From the IMG/VR virus record IMGVR_UViG_3300044676_000159, positions 1 through 54,565 of that record: 54,565 nucleotides of DNA. One strand, 5' to 3'. Below the pieces are notes generated by a model that did no database searches, was not told the DNA's origin, and was given only the letters and a program-made list of their open reading frames with translations. Position numbers and translations under genes: made by a program. Below, piece after piece: positions 2,170-29,810 of the stretch (its first letter is position 1; each line of letters starts with the position of its first letter). This DNA comes from a virus. Lineage: Duplodnaviria > Caudoviricetes.

Positions 2170-4746
2170 ATGGCAATGTTTAAAGCATTTAAGCCTAGCG
2201 GCATGGAGAAGATAGCACGTGCCATGGGCTATTCAGGCAACATGCAAGGCTTTCAAGACTACCTTGCTCAAGACCCTATGCGTCAACAGCAGATGCAAGG
2301 CTACCAACAGAAGGCCATGCAGATGGCAAAGGGTGGTGTGGTGAAGATGCAGACGGGCGGTATCATGCAAGCCCCCGGTGCTGTTCGGCAGACTGAACTT
2401 GGCGCACGTGGAGGTGGCCCTTACGACAGAGGGCCAGCAATAAACACTGGTACTGTAGCACAGGGTTATGACCCAACAACGATGGACAATTTAATTAAAC
2501 AAAGTGGTATGCCACCTATTCAACCCATCACAAAACCTGTAGAAAACACTGGTACTGTAGCACCGCATGCGCCTAATATAACGAGTGGCGAGTATCGTGG
2601 AATACCTTTTGACCCAAATGCTATGCGCATTCAAGAAGCATCAAAATCATTGGCACCAGAACAACTGGGACAACGCCAGCCAATAAGCATGGGTCAAATA
2701 GTTCCTGAATTTATTCCTGATACATCTAAAGTAAAGCCAGAAGACCAACTTCAGGCAGAATGGAAGCGTTTACAAGAGAGTGCGAGAAAAGCACGTGCTG
2801 AAGGATTTATGGGGCAAGTTGTTATGCCCGGTGAAGGAAGTTATGAAGATTGGAAACAACTAAATCAGTATGAACTGATGCGCAATCCAAATTTTACGCC
2901 ATCTACAGGTCAGTCACTAGTGTCTCCAGACTACAGCGGCATGACCTACGAACTAGCACTAGCAAGGCAACAACAACTTGATGTGAAATCACCAGCAGAG
3001 GCTGCAGCTATTCAGGCAGCACTTGCACGTGGTCCACAACAACAACAAGCAACCACACCCGCTGCACAGACACAACAAACTAATATTGGTGAGTCTACTG
3101 TACAACGAATGTATCAGCCGGGATTACCAGCGGGTGGTGTGACACAGGCTGCAGTTACTCCTAGTGAAGCAGGTCAGTACGTACAACCCGGTGCTGGCAC
3201 GGTTACAGGTGCAGTCGCAGTGCCTACCGCTATGGCTGCAACGCAACAGGCTGTTGCCCCACAGGAACAACAAGCAAATATAATGGAAGCTGCTACAGCC
3301 GCACCAGCCGTTGATGCGGCTATGAATGCTACCCAAGCTGCTCAAGGTACTGTAGACCCCCGCGCACAGGTTACAGCGGCCCAGCAAACAGCATCCAGTG
3401 TGGGGGACTTGACAGCAGCGCAAGGAAATGCTACACTAATAGACAATCCTGTACAGCGTCAAATACAACAGGGTGAACTTATCAGTGGTGCAGCAGCAGA
3501 TGCCGCTACCGCTGCACAGTTTACTGAACAGATTCAAGCAGCACAAGCTACACCATCTACACAAGCAACTGTACAAGGACAGCTTGCATCTCTTACTGCA
3601 AACTTTGATGCTGGCAATCCACCTGCATGGGCTGCTGGTGCTATGCGTAATGCTACAGCACAGATGGCTGCACGTGGACTTGGCGCAAGTAGCCTCGCTG
3701 GTCAGGCAATTGTTCAGGCTACGCTTGAGGCTGCTCTTCCTATTGCACAGGCTGACGCTGCTACAGTAGCACAGTTTGAGGCACAGAACCTTTCTAACAG
3801 ACAACAACGCGCCATGCTTGCCGCACAGCAACGTGCGCAGTTCATGGGGCAAGAGTTTGACCAAGCCTTCCAAGCACGTGTACAAAATGCAAGCCGTATT
3901 TCTGATATAGCTAATATGAACTTTACTGCAGAGCAGCAGGTGCAGTTAGAGAACTCTCGTGCTGCTAACACAATGAACCTCAACAATTTGTCTAATTCAC
4001 AGGCAATGGTTATGGCAGAGGCAAGTGCATTGGCACAGATGGATGCTGCTAATCTTAACAATCGTCAGCAAGCTGCAGTACAAAATGCACAGACATTCCT
4101 TCAAACTGACATGGCTAATTTGTCTAATCAGCAGCAAACAGAATTATTTAAAGCACAACAACGTACACAAGCTATGTTTACTGACCAAGCAGCTACTAAT
4201 GCTGCACGTCAGTTTAATGCTTCTAGTCAAAATCAAGTTGACCAGTTCTTTGCTAATTTAGCTACGCAAACTTCACAGTTTAACGCCACGCAGTCTAATG
4301 CACAGGCACAATTTAATGCAGGTCAGGCTAACACAGTCAACCGATTTAATGCTGAGATTAATAATCAGCGTGACCAGTTTAATGCACAGAACCAGCTTGT
4401 GATTGCGCAGAGCAATGCACAGTGGCGTCGTCAGATTGCTACTGCTGACACTGCTGCAGTTAACAGGGCAAACGAACTAAACGCTGCTGCAGTGCTTGAC
4501 ATTTCTAAGCAAGCATATGATAATCTGTGGAACTACTATGCTGACACAATGGAGTGGGCATGGACTTCGGCAGAGAACGATAAAGATAGACTAACACAAA
4601 TGGCGTTAGGCAAACTGTCAGCAGAAACAAATAAGTCAATCCAGCAGCTTAAGACAGATGCAGAAGAAAGTGGAGCAATTGGTGGTTTTTTTGCAGATAT
4701 TCTTACCAGCCAAGTTGGTGGAAGTCTGCTAGGAAAATTATTTTAA
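2170..4746 (+). CDS. Putative internal virion (ejection) protein, Gln/Ala-rich
   Basis: 858 aa, long Q/A/N-rich helical region, located after tail genes. Confidence 0.65.
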   Translation: MAMFKAFKPSGMEKIARAMGYSGNMQGFQDYLAQDPMRQQQMQGYQQKAMQMAKGGVVKMQTGGIMQAPGAVRQTELGARGGGPYDRGPAINTGTVAQGYDPTTMDNLIKQSGMPPIQPITKPVENTGTVAPHAPNITSGEYRGIPFDPNAMRIQEASKSLAPEQLGQRQPISMGQIVPEFIPDTSKVKPEDQLQAEWKRLQESARKARAEGFMGQVVMPGEGSYEDWKQLNQYELMRNPNFTPSTGQSLVSPDYSGMTYELALARQQQLDVKSPAEAAAIQAALARGPQQQQATTPAAQTQQTNIGESTVQRMYQPGLPAGGVTQAAVTPSEAGQYVQPGAGTVTGAVAVPTAMAATQQAVAPQEQQANIMEAATAAPAVDAAMNATQAAQGTVDPRAQVTAAQQTASSVGDLTAAQGNATLIDNPVQRQIQQGELISGAAADAATAAQFTEQIQAAQATPSTQATVQGQLASLTANFDAGNPPAWAAGAMRNATAQMAARGLGASSLAGQAIVQATLEAALPIAQADAATVAQFEAQNLSNRQQRAMLAAQQRAQFMGQEFDQAFQARVQNASRISDIANMNFTAEQQVQLENSRAANTMNLNNLSNSQAMVMAEASALAQMDAANLNNRQQAAVQNAQTFLQTDMANLSNQQQTELFKAQQRTQAMFTDQAATNAARQFNASSQNQVDQFFANLATQTSQFNATQSNAQAQFNAGQANTVNRFNAEINNQRDQFNAQNQLVIAQSNAQWRRQIATADTAAVNRANELNAAAVLDISKQAYDNLWNYYADTMEWAWTSAENDKDRLTQMALGKLSAETNKSIQQLKTDAEESGAIGGFFADILTSQVGGSLLGKLF

Positions 4747-25490: not shown

Positions 25491-25984
25491 GCTACTTCCT
25501 CCTCGTACTCAGCTATACGTTCACTGATACCAAAATACTCGTCTAGTTCGGGGTGGTGTTCAGCAACACTCTCAACATCATCAATGCACCAGTCATCTCC
25601 ATCAATGTATTCACCGATATACATCCAGCCTTCGTCAAGGTAACGTGCGTTGACCTCAAAGCCCATGTCTACCAGCTTGTCATAGATAGGAATAGGTGGC
25701 GACCATGCAGTGTAGAAATCCAGTGACAATGTGTTAGCGTCAAAGCGATTGCAGTATGTTTCGTACACATCCCACTTGGTACCCCAATTCTCCAGACGCC
25801 ATTCATACCAGCCTTGTGGTTTATAGTCATCTGAAAAGCCAGATATCTCTAGCAACTTCTCATCCATAGGGATAAGTGTCTGGCATAGAGGTGTGTCCTT
25901 TGTGTTCATGATGTTGTAAATCATGTCAATCTGCTGACTGTCTTTGTGGTACAGTATTACACTGTTGTCTGTATGATTAGGCAT
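25487..25984 (-). CDS. DUF1281 / YubB ferredoxin-like domain protein
   Basis: MPNH, WYEWRLENWGTKWD, FYTAWSPP. Confidence 0.7.
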   Translation of the reverse strand: MPNHTDNSVILYHKDSQQIDMIYNIMNTKDTPLCQTLIPMDEKLLEISGFSDDYKPQGWYEWRLENWGTKWDVYETYCNRFDANTLSLDFYTAWSPPIPIYDKLVDMGFEVNARYLDEGWMYIGEYIDGDDWCIDDVESVAEHHPELDEYFGISERIAEYEEEVA

Positions 25985-26016
25985 TGTTCACTTTCTCCTC
26001 TATTGTTGTGTATTAA

Positions 26017-26196
26017 TTATGGATATCTTCTGTTCATATGGTGTGCGACACTCTGCTGGTCAGGTTCGTCGCGGTCAAACCAATAGTCCAGCAGAGTGTA
26101 CTTCACACGTTTAGCATTGGCGCGGATCACTTGTGTCTCAGTCATCCGCCTCTTGTTTATCCGCTTGGTGCGGAATTTGTCTGTCTTCACTCGCAT
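26017..26196 (-). CDS. Basic hypothetical protein
   Basis: MRVKTDKFRTKRINKRR...; purine-rich RBS. Confidence 0.45.
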   Translation of the reverse strand: MRVKTDKFRTKRINKRRMTETQVIRANAKRVKYTLLDYWFDRDEPDQQSVAHHMNRRYP

Positions 26197-26308
26197 TCTT
26201 ATCCCTCTTTCTATTGTATTTCTTTTTGTTTGGCACAACCTGTGCGCGTCTGCGGCTCTGCATCATAGCTTTTGCCACAGGATTTACTCTAGTGATGCGG
26301 TCACTCAT
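26138..26308 (-). CDS. Small basic protein with ArfA-like motif (56 aa, not in ORF track)
   Basis: MSDRITRVNPVAKAMMQSRRRAQVVPNKKKYNRKRDK... Confidence 0.55.
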   Translation of the reverse strand: MSDRITRVNPVAKAMMQSRRRAQVVPNKKKYNRKRDKNASEDRQIPHQADKQEADD

Positions 26309-26310
26309 TG

Positions 26311-26490
26311 TCAACCCCTAAGTTCGTAGATCATCATCCTCAATTCGTCTTGGTATTCCTGTACCCTTGACCAGTCATCATCAGACAGACGGTCTATCTG
26401 TTTTTCTGTCAACAGGTGATGGATATTATACAGGTCAACGATGTCACCATTGGGATAGCGTTCCAGCCTAGCAAAGTCTTGTCGTTTCAT
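26311..26490 (-). CDS. Hypothetical protein (59 aa, not in ORF track)
   Basis: GAGGTGA RBS; MKRQDFARLERYPNGDIVDLY... Confidence 0.6.
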   Translation of the reverse strand: MKRQDFARLERYPNGDIVDLYNIHHLLTEKQIDRLSDDDWSRVQEYQDELRMMIYELRG

Positions 26491-26494
26491 ATCA

Positions 26495-26890
26495 TCACCT
26501 CTTTTGTTTTAATGTACTAATATATAAGCGCAGGGCGGGGAAGTCGCATCTCAAAACGTGCAACAATCACCCGCCCCACTTCGACAGGCTTTCGTTCTTC
26601 TTCAGACCTACTAACCTGTCGCAACATCCAAGGCTGTCCACGAACGCGCGAACTACACCAAGGAATACAAACCGGTGGGCAGTTTAACGACACTTGCCCA
26701 AGGTCGGACGACCGGATGCCATTCAGACCGGTAACAGACTAACACTGTTTCTAGTGAAGGCTTACAGTGAACGCCCACCTGTGTCTTATTTACAGTCGTT
26801 ACAGGCTTAACCGTGTTTATACTCACTCGACTATTAGGTGGGGCAGTGATCGTATCACACGCCCCTGCCATCCCACTACAATCTGGGTTG
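26495..26890 (-). ncRNA. Putative structured non-coding RNA (~400 nt)
   Basis: Intergenic and GC-rich; stems GGGCGGG/CCCGCCC, CGACAGG/CCTGTCG, CCCACCT/AGGTGGG and a pseudoknot. Confidence 0.55.
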
Positions 26891-26892
26891 GC

Positions 26893-27141
26893 CTATTCAT
26901 ATCTACTGGAATCAATCGGGCCACTAAGCGTCTGCGTAGTGTCAAGATATCTCAGATATTCTATCACTTCTGACAGGTCAAGATAACCCTTTACATCAGG
27001 TTCACCCTCTACAGACACCTCACACATATGCTGGTCAACATGTCCATACGCTCCGCCTTCACGTCCTTTGCTATTCTGAATGATGCTCACTTCCCTGCCA
27101 TCGGGAAGCTGTAGCTTGATAATGTTATGTGGTATAGTCAT
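26893..27141 (-). CDS. Hypothetical protein
   Basis: GAGGT RBS; 82 aa. Confidence 0.55.
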   Translation of the reverse strand: MTIPHNIIKLQLPDGREVSIIQNSKGREGGAYGHVDQHMCEVSVEGEPDVKGYLDLSEVIEYLRYLDTTQTLSGPIDSSRYE

Positions 27142-27149
27142 ACCTCACC

Positions 27150-27749
27150 TCACTTGATGTTGTGAATGCGACGCCATGTCACCCATGTAATCGCTTGCAA
27201 TTCAAACGCTTTCAGCGCACGGCCATTGACACGTGTGCGCTTGGCGGCGGCTACATATTCCGCCTGTAATGTCCTGTATTCCTTGACACCGATATTGGTC
27301 TTGTCATCTGTCAAGCCTATACGCTCACCATATGCGATGTTTCGCGCATGTCCATCAATGGTGCAAGTGTCATCACCAATGATGTTGCGATAGAAAGAGA
27401 CAATCTTCTGGCCATTGAGTATATCAATGACGCCATCATGGTCAGGCATTGCCTTGAGTATAGACCATGCTTTTTGTTTCATCTTGTGGTATGTGGACAC
27501 TTTGACACTATCTATTCCATCACCATTGACACGAGCCGTACATAGATCGCGCGTATTGACAATGTTTCTGTCCCATTTATTGTTGGGCGATAATGCCGCA
27601 CAGACACCTGTCACAATATGGACAGGCAGGTCTAAGTCAATGGCAATGCGGGTGCAATCACGAAATGCGTCAGCATACCAGACAATTCCATCACGTTTTT
27701 CTTCTGGCGTAGCCAGCTTGTAGATGGCAAGGATGTTTTCTGTAGACAT
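27150..27749 (-). CDS. Conserved early protein with a possible DNA glycosylase-like fold
   Basis: WY...AALSP...W..N...KIVSFY.NI...TIDGH...LQAITW pattern. Confidence 0.55.
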   Translation of the reverse strand: MSTENILAIYKLATPEEKRDGIVWYADAFRDCTRIAIDLDLPVHIVTGVCAALSPNNKWDRNIVNTRDLCTARVNGDGIDSVKVSTYHKMKQKAWSILKAMPDHDGVIDILNGQKIVSFYRNIIGDDTCTIDGHARNIAYGERIGLTDDKTNIGVKEYRTLQAEYVAAAKRTRVNGRALKAFELQAITWVTWRRIHNIK

Positions 27750-27750
27750 G

Positions 27751-27939
27751 TTACACCTCCGAATTTACAAATTCAATGGCAAGGGAAACCCAGCCACCAA
27801 TAAATGATGCAACCCCACCGATTACAGACACAATCCAAATCCAGTGTCCTGTTTCTAATGCAGCGATTGCGGCAAACACTGTTGCAATGGGAGCCAAGGT
27901 CAGCATAAAGACCAAGCCCATAAATTCCATCTTGCTCAT
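27751..27939 (-). CDS. Small two-helix membrane protein
   Basis: Two hydrophobic segments; GAGGTGA RBS. Confidence 0.55.
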   Translation of the reverse strand: MSKMEFMGLVFMLTLAPIATVFAAIAALETGHWIWIVSVIGGVASFIGGWVSLAIEFVNSEV

Positions 27940-28009
27940 GATAGTCACCTCTTGTGTGGTATGGTTAGGGGGAGCAATGCCCTACGAATAGAGCATTACC
28001 CCCACGAAG

Positions 28010-28390
28010 TCAAGCGGATTTGCGATGCGCGGCCGCACCTGTCGGCGCACACGCAAGTTCAGCAATGTCATCAATCTTGAATGCGCCAAGATCAATCGTG
28101 TGGTTTTTGCGATCCAGCGTCTTGTCAATACCGGTCAGCAACATCTCGAATGTTGTGATCGAATTAGACAAAATGCGGGTGCCAAACTCGTCTTTAATCT
28201 GACGTGCCGCATTACGGCTGGCCCTGTAGCAACGCATCTTGGACAGCTTTTGTCCCGTCTTGCGCTTGTACTTGGTAGCAACGCGAGTGAATTTGTTCTG
28301 GTTGTGTTCAGACAAATTCTGACCGGTCAGACCGGTGCCTTGGAACCAGTAGCCAACATTGACATTGATATTGATAGCTTGCTTAGACAT
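28010..28390 (-). CDS. First early gene, basic hypothetical protein
   Basis: GAGGTGA RBS; K/R-rich; GC-rich third codon positions. Confidence 0.65.
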   Translation of the reverse strand: MSKQAININVNVGYWFQGTGLTGQNLSEHNQNKFTRVATKYKRKTGQKLSKMRCYRASRNAARQIKDEFGTRILSNSITTFEMLLTGIDKTLDRKNHTIDLGAFKIDDIAELACAPTGAAAHRKSA

Positions 28391-28399
28391 GATATTCAC

Positions 28400-28980
28400 C
28401 TCGTGGTTGGTTAGGTTATGGGTGTGACATTACACCCCCTAACAACACCTGTCAAGAGTGTACCGGCGACCATGCTTAACTGCCCCGAAGGACTAGCGCA
28501 CTGTCGCCGGTATCTTGTCATAATCCCGATTTTCACCTGACTTGCTATCGTCAGTTTTTCACACCTCTTGCGTCAGCGGCATGTCCAAGGACAGCTAGGG
28601 CATCTGCGGTCGGTATAGATACTTGTCGGGTTTTCGTATAGTTAGAGTGCTTGTTTCAGCCACACCCTGCCAAAGTTTATAGTTCGCCTTGGCCTACAGT
28701 ACCCGCTACGCCAGCCTGTAGTTCATGCTTTACGCCCTCTTCACATTGACCACCCCGGAGATTTTAACTGGGCCTTGTCTTGTCATACACCTGCCGCCTT
28801 GGTAGCATGTGCTGTGTCAGGATAGTTTCCCAGCCTTGACAGACTCCGGTAGCCTACGCCCTGTCCACGTTACAGTGTGAGTTCGTTTCTTTATAGACGG
28901 CTGGCCATTTATCGCCACCACTTTAGCCGTCTTTAGTCTTGGCCACTTTATAGTCGGATCAATTCGCCTTCCCGACTGTT
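28400..28980 (-). ncRNA. Putative large structured non-coding RNA or 5' leader (~580 nt)
   Basis: No ORF of 60 aa or more in any frame from 28415 to 29136; starts just below a consensus promoter; many nested inverted repeats. Confidence 0.6.
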
Positions 28981-28985
28981 CTTTT

Positions 28986-29014
28986 AGTCTATTCTAATCG
29001 TATTCGATAGTCAA
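28986..29014 (-). promoter_or_regulatory. Early sigma70-type promoter TTGACT-N17-TAGACT with A-rich UP element
   Basis: -35 at 29014-29009, -10 at 28991-28986, A-tracts upstream. Confidence 0.65.
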
Positions 29015-29029
29015 GGGGTTTTTTATTTT

Positions 29030-29195
29030 CGCTTGCTATGTGGGCAACCCCTAGCCTTACAAGCTACACCGAATTTTATTGGCCTATCGGTTTACCTTAG
29101 TCTGTATCACATAGACCCGCTGGCCACGTTTGCAAGCTAAAACCTTGTTATCTCACCCCTAGGGCTTTGTAGCTGGTTTGTCGCTGTTTGTTCTG
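29030..29195 (-). ncRNA. Putative small structured RNA (~170 nt)
   Basis: GC-rich island with AGCTACA/TGTAGCT, GCTTGC/GCAAGC and CTATGTG/CACATAG pairings. Confidence 0.35.
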
Positions 29196-29781
29196 CGATG
29201 ATTTGATTAGACACGAAACTGATTTGAAACACAACAAAAAAGATTCTTAATGTTTTCAATGGCTTACTGATTAACCTATTGAATTTATTGATAAATAAAA
29301 ATGCAGACTGATTGCACTTTTTTTGAATATGTAATGTTTTCAAGGGGATAGGATATTTTTCTTTTATATATATAAAGTGTCATGTGTTTGTTCTGTGTTT
29401 GTTCTTGTTGTTTTGGTGCATCGTCCTTTCATCTGTTGCAGAAATGTCACATCGTTGCTTTTTTGCCACATATTATATCGTCAAATGATAGTCAATCAGT
29501 TATCTATTGACAGAATGTCTAGCCATTTCAAGGTGTTAGCATTGCTTTGAGACATTTTGCTGGCAAATCGGGTGAAATGGCGGCAAGACAAAGGAAAATC
29601 AAGAGGGTAGGCAGGGGCCACCGCCGGGTATAGCGTATATGTATACATAGAAATACACAGATCAGTAAAATTGAGTGTTAACCACAATGACAACTGACAC
29701 TCATATATGCACAAGTACTGCACAATCTGCCTATTTTTTAGGCAATTGTACATTAATTTGGGTGGATTTGCATTTTATGTA

Positions 29782-29810
29782 TTGACACGGTACCCGTAAT
29801 CTGGTATAAT
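29782..29810 (+). promoter_or_regulatory. Consensus sigma70 promoter TTGACA-N17-TATAAT with extended -10
   Basis: Perfect hexamers upstream of the rightward arm. Confidence 0.8.

Follow-up and report, generated by a model that had tools for sequence, protein, structure and literature searches.

The window analysed here is the whole 54,565-nt stretch of IMG/VR record IMGVR_UViG_3300044676_000159, a phage genome of 54.6 kb whose genes include those for integrase, DnaB-like helicase, family-A DNA polymerase, ribonucleotide reductase, terminase and portal. Its minus strand carries genes from approximately 10.8 to 28.4 kb. Within this leftward arm a non-coding gap of 402 nt (26491-26892) separates two minus-strand open reading frames (ORFs) located at 26893-27141 and 26311-26490. 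This gap is the subject of the present analysis. The first-pass annotation had described it as a structured non-coding block of about 400 nt, and folding agrees with that description. Minimum free energy (MFE) of the minus strand is -147.7 kcal/mol, compared with -122.2 +/- 5.9 kcal/mol for 100 dinucleotide shuffles (z -4.33, 0/100 shuffles as good), while the plus strand yields z -1.85 with 4/100 shuffles as good. Comparison with related phages indicates that the gap is not a single RNA. It is composed of four RNA modules, termed A, B, C and D, each of which is inherited separately. Module B, a double-pseudoknot motif of about 95 nt, apparently represents an undescribed RNA family, since it matches no Rfam family.

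Related loci (denoted by L numbers) were collected as 80 viral contigs encoding a relative of the neighbouring 199-aa gene (DUF7178), and BLAST and nhmmer searches of the gap against them were used to delimit the modules. The gap was divided into four because these searches match different parts of it in different loci. The nearest relative of the window, L001, is 98.5% identical over the gap and carries A-B-C-D together with a tRNA-Trp gene. L019 also contains all four modules, with insertions. In L002 and L003, tRNA-Trp and B are present without A. In L007, other genes lie between an upstream B and a downstream D, and L014 has tRNA-Trp and none of the four modules. In L008, A is followed by the first ~28 nt of B and then by a promoter-like site and another small gene. 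This break is a clear recombination junction within RNA motif B. The region of L008 where module B is left (4090-4560) contains the promoter-like site TTGACA...TAGAAT and the small gene.

The strands of B follow one another in the order P1, hairpin, PK1, P1', PK1', PK2, P4, PK2', P4' (coordinates in Table 1). P1 encloses a small hairpin and near-invariant CGGUUAAGC. Covariance model (CM) R1 finds B in the window with 98 bits (E 9e-26), in one copy only. The fold was evaluated on 114 unique copies usable for alignment. In these, 93.0% of cells are paired, compared with 82.8% in shuffled alignments, and 0/500 shuffles equal the observed value. Both sides are changed in 11 of the 18 pairs (214 cells). 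Slid controls, with partners moved by 1-3 columns, are paired in 27-58% of cells. An earlier set of 45 sequences gives a similar picture (93.3% of cells paired, 9 pairs with both sides changed, 0/500 shuffles equal). RNAalifold run without a supplied structure recovers P2, PK1 and PK2, and 8 of the 12 pairs change on both sides. PK1 in particular is 99.5% paired across 26 sequence variants. Since the length of P4 is too variable for a column count, this helix was tested by folding each sequence. It forms in 45/45 sequences, with -3.84 kcal/mol for own strands and -0.92 kcal/mol for swapped ones, and 0/300 permutations reach the observed value. G-U pairs are frequent, e.g. in 61/114 copies at one PK1 pair. 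Because G-U would become an A-C mismatch on the other strand, these pairs establish the minus strand as the functional one and speak for action as RNA. The alignment contains 22 invariant and 21 nearly invariant columns, and about 20 positions are both unpaired and invariant. Such positions suggest binding of a conserved host or phage partner, or catalysis. No conservation was detected upstream of P1 across the B alignments. B is the strongest element of the gap, supported by covariation and not by energy, and visible only by comparison.

Several pairings listed in the first-pass annotation can be assigned to this modular structure. ATAGTCG/CGACTGT is helix P1 of B and covaries. The GGGGC/GCCCC hairpin is present at 26840-26865, CGACAGG/CCTGTCG corresponds to stem D1, and GGGCGGG/CCCGCCC to hairpin D2, found in all D copies seen. 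The covariation check proposed there was positive for stems of B, C and D. As for the domain said to be flanked by ACCGGT and ACCGGT, compensatory changes maintain only a local hairpin, ACCGG/CCGGT, and not the pairing over a long range. The proposed multibranch domain has to be replaced by the double pseudoknot. Its closing helix CCCACCT/AGGTGGG is unconserved: of 119 other copies, 2 have a matching string upstream, and the AGG and GGG segments pair elsewhere. Similarly, GGTTAAGCC, regarded as a paired inner element, lies at 26805-26812, is almost invariant in the 114 copies and does not form a hairpin.

Table 1. Features of the gap and its flanks (all on the minus strand; z, MFE z-score)
Feature	Position	Strand	Remarks
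Upstream flanking ORF, 82 aa	26893..27141	-	Homologues only in L019, L045, L044
Module A	26836..26892	-	Hairpins A1 26867-26892 and A2 26840-26865; z -4.54
Module B, double-pseudoknot motif, ~95 nt	26735..26837	-	CM R1, covariation; z +0.48
B helix P1	26828-26832 with 26794-26798	-	GUCG with CGAC, plus covarying flanking pair
B hairpin P2	26824-26826 with 26813-26815	-	
B near-invariant CGGUUAAGC	around 26805-26812	-	
B PK1	26801-26805 with 26778-26782	-	Strand inside P1 with strand downstream of P1
B PK2	26773-26776 with 26758-26761	-	GGG with CCC, into conserved P4 loop
B variable helix P4	26764-26769 with 26743-26748	-	Encloses conserved loop ending AGAAA
Module C	26672..26732	-	Hairpin C1 26728-26732 with 26711-26715, then H-type pseudoknot; z -1.18
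C pseudoknot stems	S1 26703-26706 with 26688-26691; S2 26695-26699 with 26677-26681	-	
Linker C-D	26623..26671	-	Common only to L001 and partly L019
Module D	26530..26622	-	Hairpin D1 and GC-rich hairpin D2; z -4.93
D1	26615-26622 with 26582-26588	-	Around invariant 26-nt loop 26589-26614
D2, long GC-rich hairpin	26530-26579	-	Followed by conserved GCGCUUAU
72-aa ORF over modules A to C	26653..26871	-	ATG start; judged not a gene
Shine-Dalgarno-like sequence for 59-aa gene	26495..26503	-	Start codon at 26490
Downstream flanking gene, 59 aa	26311..26490	-	Conserved in 13 related loci

A protein-coding explanation of the gap would have to rely on the 72-aa ORF, the only minus-strand ORF of its size there. 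Partial tblastn matches to it exist in L019, L008 and L004; they track the RNA modules and not the reading frame. Relative to the window, L019 and L008 differ by indels of 44, 1, 5, 1, 35 and 65 nt, and each frame contains at least three stops. Of 45 homologous B copies, 8 keep this frame open, and at most 14 do so for any frame of either strand. Pfam returned no match to the ORF. The view of the first-pass annotation that this is not a real protein is thus borne out by the lack of codon-like conservation; a small protein gene at this place has next to no probability and appears already refuted by the frame data.

We then determined how widely B occurs. Two patterns were scanned: a degenerate one, derived from the first 7-sequence alignment, over viral contigs, and a stricter one over genome contigs and metagenome contigs. 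Among the matches listed for viral and metagenome contigs, nhmmer identified at least 155 full-length B copies in 359 loci, comprising at least 119 unique sequences; these counts are lower bounds. In the genome contigs, two of the 31 pattern matches are real B copies (L202 and L209), both in metagenome-assembled genomes. Of the 80 loci chosen by a relative of the 199-aa protein, B is present in 8. Neither the 1051-nt region nor one B copy used as blastn query matched any cultured phage among 50,697 phage records. Window DNA was found in 24 sequencing runs, all of them DNA or of undetermined type, labelled as estuary, seawater and aquatic metagenomes; for 25500-29600 no RNA run is listed. We found no account of the B motif in the literature; a catalogue drawn from IMG/VR, with more than 10,000 structured-RNA candidates (PMC10690425), may list it in its supplements.

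We infer that hosts of these phages are Alphaproteobacteria, because the best cultured relatives of the 199-aa protein belong to roseobacter phages (~55% identity), L209 lies within a Marinovum assembly, and several B contigs carry permuted tmRNA. Phage-borne permuted tmRNAs of alphaproteobacterial type, with tags ANDNFAPV..., were detected by Rfam in B contigs L136, L328 and L145, and the same type was called by ARAGORN in L183, L262, L209 and L350. As a separate candidate, mimicry of a 16S rRNA three-way junction by the 5' half of B was considered and rejected: CM R1 scores at best 3.6 bits against E. coli rrsH. A 16S rRNA was also sought in the genome behind L209, and none was found.

ARAGORN analysis of all motif loci revealed that B is often situated within or beside phage tRNA arrays. 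At least one tRNA is encoded in the fetched locus for 55 of the 114 unique copies, and all 117 tRNAs in B loci (117/117) lie on the same strand as B. A tRNA is found within 300 nt of B in 44/114 copies. For 13 of the 114, the tRNA 3' end precedes GUCG by no more than 10 nt, and in 11 of these the distance is 3-4 nt. These directly upstream tRNAs are mostly tRNA-Trp; Arg, Glu, Leu and Pro also occur. On the other side, 12 copies have a tRNA 5' end no more than 30 nt past the end of the AGAA loop; most of these tRNAs are tRNA-Arg(tct), with a distance of 15-18 nt. In L305, B occupies a slot between tRNA-Arg and tRNA-Gly. Infernal independently confirmed the tRNAs, and in 18 such loci it detected no other known RNA except for the alphaproteobacterial permuted tmRNA. 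In the loci scanned, listed tRNA calls never coincide with a B copy, and the few that overlap do so only with edge flanks of the profile match. A control on 60 loci chosen by protein gave a tRNA in 3 of 8 motif-positive and in 2 of 52 motif-negative loci (hand-computed hypergeometric P = 0.014).

The same association is seen in close relatives of the window. In L001, L002, L003 and L014 the 199-aa gene is separated from the block by a tRNA-Trp(cca) gene. In L002 the CCA of this tRNA is followed by three bases and then by GUCG. The window and L019 have the 82-aa ORF in place of tRNA-Trp. L001, L002, L014 and L155 share a conserved AT-rich stretch some 60 nt before tRNA-Trp, which is absent from the window and may be the island's own promoter.

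These data lead us to prefer, with confidence slightly above even, the interpretation that the block consists of discrete RNA modules of the tRNA-island type and forms the tail of a phage tRNA/small-RNA island. The tail would be part of the leftward early operon and be read from the minus strand. B would be made within an early/tRNA polycistronic transcript and then released as a discrete stable RNA of about 100 nt; C and D are probably excised in the same manner. The 5' end of B would arise at the P1 edge, 2-3 nt past the CCA of the upstream tRNA, and its 3' end would, in arrays, be set by RNase P cutting at the next tRNA. Since a tRNA ending 2-3 nt before P1 must mature, a cut at the tRNA-B junction is required (roles of RNases in tRNA maturation are taken here as summarised in PMC10879173). 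The 5'-edge cut might be introduced by a host nuclease or by B itself. In the window, a small protein gene would have replaced the tRNA, so that B would ride in the mRNA between two early genes. B is probably either such a discrete RNA or, alternatively, a processing point. The first-pass annotation had proposed an RNA gene or processing hub; the kind of element was recognised correctly, given the tRNA-Trp directly upstream in sister phages, and what does not hold is its unity, as there are four modules and not one RNA.

If B itself introduces the 5'-edge cut, it would be a new class of self-cleaving ribozyme. Such a cut would separate the upstream tRNA or mRNA from the downstream RNA, which would then begin with a structured 5' end. 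In broader terms, B would be a nuclease-independent "punctuation mark" between tRNAs and early genes, by which polycistronic transcripts are cut. The 11 copies that begin 3-4 nt past a tRNA 3' end are in line with this idea, as an abutting tRNA needs a cut and the junction appears to be devoid of an RNase P site. The absence of conservation upstream of P1, the compact double pseudoknot with its many invariant columns, and the independence of B from the neighbouring gene would also be expected of such a ribozyme. There is a precedent in theta (minimal HDV-like) ribozymes, proposed to cut beside tRNAs in gut phages, 58% of which cleave within 5 nt of the tRNA 3' end (PMC10879173). As far as described there, they resemble B as compact phage double pseudoknots situated directly after tRNA 3' ends, without conserved upstream sequence. 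Strand order is nevertheless different. HDV-like and theta ribozymes are arranged as P1, P2, P3, P3', P1', P4, P4', P2', whereas in B, as read from the alignment, the pseudoknot strand comes after the inner hairpin and not before it. No Rfam ribozyme model matches B even at E up to 10. Only about one in ten copies abuts a tRNA 3' end, compared with 58% for theta ribozymes, and a similar number abut a tRNA 5' end. The tRNA-Trp genes linked to B carry a terminal CCA, which according to the same source (PMC10879173) is encoded in only 4.5% of theta-linked tRNAs. Habitats differ as well, B sequences being marine or estuarine and theta ribozymes coming from gut phages. On this balance we consider self-cleavage rather unlikely, though a serious candidate.

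Distribution of protein genes around B bears on another possibility, namely that B is a cis-regulatory leader (riboswitch or protein-binding operator) controlling translation of the downstream gene. A possible mechanism would involve release or hiding of the CCCUC loop, which is anti-Shine-Dalgarno-like. ORFs on the same strand predominate around B, so that it is co-oriented with its flanking genes, and among the 105 copies with a downstream ORF, 33 have its start no more than 45 nt from the end of the AGAA loop. In one group, B is preceded by a -10-like box at a distance of about 8 nt and followed directly by a phrog_11903 gene of 375-383 aa. The many invariant unpaired positions would also suit a leader. 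Clustering of neighbouring ORFs, however, revealed no partner gene common to all copies. Downstream genes are too diverse to form a single class: they include phrog_11903, PPK2, an Nlig-Ia domain, Fe-S biogenesis, DUF932 and several unknowns, and in 12 copies a tRNA comes next. In the window, C and D intervene between B and the next start codon, a distance of about 250 nt. The fold does not include the ribosome-binding sites, and neither a conserved terminator nor a sequestering helix is present. With no consistent gene class and no expression platform, B does not resemble a riboswitch, and control of a downstream gene is improbable.

Two of these neighbours are worth describing. For the phrog_11903 protein, encoded after B in some loci, no relative was found in Pfam, NCBIfam or PDB, and its tblastn matches are distant ones only, in large phages. 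Stand-alone Nlig-Ia (DNA ligase NAD+-binding domain) proteins of 88-117 aa are encoded directly after B in several loci (L015 4717-5013, L004 3188-3451, L147 6445-6795). They were assigned by Pfam matches in L015 and L147, and L004 is a close homologue by sequence.

The remaining modules are less widely represented. Beyond the window, A is found only in L001, L008 and L019, and the four sequences are near-identical. It begins directly at the upstream stop codon. In L001, A lies between the tRNA-Trp 3' end and B and is flanked on both sides by ATAG, so that it resembles a 57-nt insertion (L001 4810-4875; window 26833-26896). Its second hairpin is followed by ACCU, which is faintly reminiscent of a tRNA minihelix end. 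Exact-pattern scans found C in 8 contigs and D likewise in 8. In 6 distinct sequences, C is 100% paired, 2 of its 9 pairs are changed on both sides, and both pseudoknot stems are kept. The 7-bp stem of D1 is also 100% paired in 6 distinct sequences, and 4 of its 7 pairs show changes on both sides. D2 is a GC hairpin of 10-12 bp with a variable tip, followed by conserved GCGCUUAU and a broken U-rich run.

The loop of D1 includes CUGAAGA and GAAA, the core strings of hammerhead ribozymes in type-III order. By the scheme in PMC10085705, the D1 stem would be at the place of stem III and a U-A step at that of the cleavage site. Nevertheless, D1 was rejected as a hammerhead: 6 and 5 nt are found where stems I and II belong, so that neither can form, and Rfam gave no hammerhead hit. 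These strings could be due to chance, be a relic, or belong to a core completed in trans.

Modules A and D also raise the question whether the block might be ordinary operon punctuation (terminator or attenuator hairpins, RNase sites) or might act at the level of DNA, for instance as an origin or a site of recombination. Thermodynamic signal of the gap comes from these two modules, because per-module z is strong only there (Table 1). D2 has the form of a long GC hairpin before a U-rich stretch, and the region is a recombination mosaic. Against this, the consensus terminator scan called no minus-strand terminator in the gap, D2 included. In L115 and L234 a ribosome-binding site and start codon follow D within about 20 nt or less, so D cannot stop all transcription. 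Pseudoknots and invariant loops of B are not features of terminators, and its frequent G-U pairs point to RNA and to the minus strand. We therefore regard punctuation or a DNA-level role as very improbable.

Several points weigh against the preferred interpretation as an island tail. ARAGORN detected no tRNA in the window, and RF00005 gave no tRNA match at E <= 10 in 26200-29600. Rfam 15 (4227 models) gave no match at gathering score in the whole window, and at E <= 10 the region 26200-29600 yielded just two matches of chance level, RT-18 (18.4 bits, cut-off 41.3) and sau-6072. For 59 of the 114 copies the fetched locus contains no tRNA, 70 lack one within 300 nt, and many B copies are located between protein genes. 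Counts of tRNA proximity are raw counts from the motif loci, set against the control on 60 protein-chosen loci. Excision of B is deduced. Nested MFE of B is ordinary, and its invariance may in part stem from recent spread, as the copies are from related marine phage lineages. For A, comparison is silent on the fold, because only the four near-identical copies exist; folds of C and D are based on 6 distinct sequences each.

Similar organization is known from phage T4 and its stable RNAs rnaC and rnaD (species 1 and 2 RNAs), which are not known to have a function. In the T4 record, tRNA-Arg, rnaD and rnaC are contiguous, with spacers of 1 and 6 nt. The likeness consists in small RNAs placed head-to-tail after a tRNA, only a few nt apart, within a tRNA cluster of a phage. 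Such placement applies to part of the B family (13 copies after and 12 before a tRNA) and not to the window, and B differs in that it is also found between protein genes, away from tRNAs. Homology to rnaC/rnaD was rejected, since CM R1 scores 3.7 bits there and its best score in the T4 tRNA region, 8.3 bits, is elsewhere.

GOLLD and ROOL are said to be "often near tRNA islands" (bioRxiv 10.1101/2024.12.08.627333), and are, as far as described in that source, further phage or prophage non-coding RNAs without known function and with many pseudoknots. GOLLD often exceeds 800 nt, and both form multimeric cages according to the same preprint, in contrast to B with its ~95 nt. Their Rfam models match neither the window nor the 18 motif loci. 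What B shares with T4 rnaC/rnaD, GOLLD and ROOL is thus the setting, that of structured RNAs of phage tRNA islands.

Apart from the gap, the early arm of the window contains other features of interest. Two ORFs of 129 aa overlap nearly completely on opposite strands (28010-28399, minus; 28025-28414, plus). Because the minus-strand ORF has homologues in 12 loci, the plus-strand ORF is probably its shadow. Upstream of the 129-aa gene, ~950 nt of the minus strand (28400-29350) are without a convincing ORF; their nucleotide sequence is conserved in over 20 related loci, with nhmmer E values as low as 1e-231. This region, the other block named in the first-pass annotation (28.4-29.2 kb), contains repeated CUAUAAA-type strings, and CM R1 gives there a weak 7-bit match only, at 28873-28965. 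It may represent a large non-coding RNA or a control region. Further on, a perfect match to a sigma-70-type promoter (TTGACA, 17 nt, TATAAT, with TG) is found on the plus strand at 29782-29810, where the leftward early arm and the rightward genes diverge.

B is a small and well-defined addition to the RNAs of phage tRNA islands, with about 95 nt, two pseudoknots, more than 100 natural variants and rich covariation. It is common in marine and estuarine phages, and its size is suitable for biochemistry and structure work. If B proved to self-cleave, it would constitute a new ribozyme class, equivalent in marine phages to the theta ribozymes of gut phages and built on an unrelated double-pseudoknot fold. 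If it is instead a stable trans-acting RNA, it would provide a compact handle on the role of RNAs from phage tRNA islands. For annotation of these phages, the analysis shows that an extended "gap" in an early operon can hold an array of exchangeable RNA cassettes and not a missed gene.

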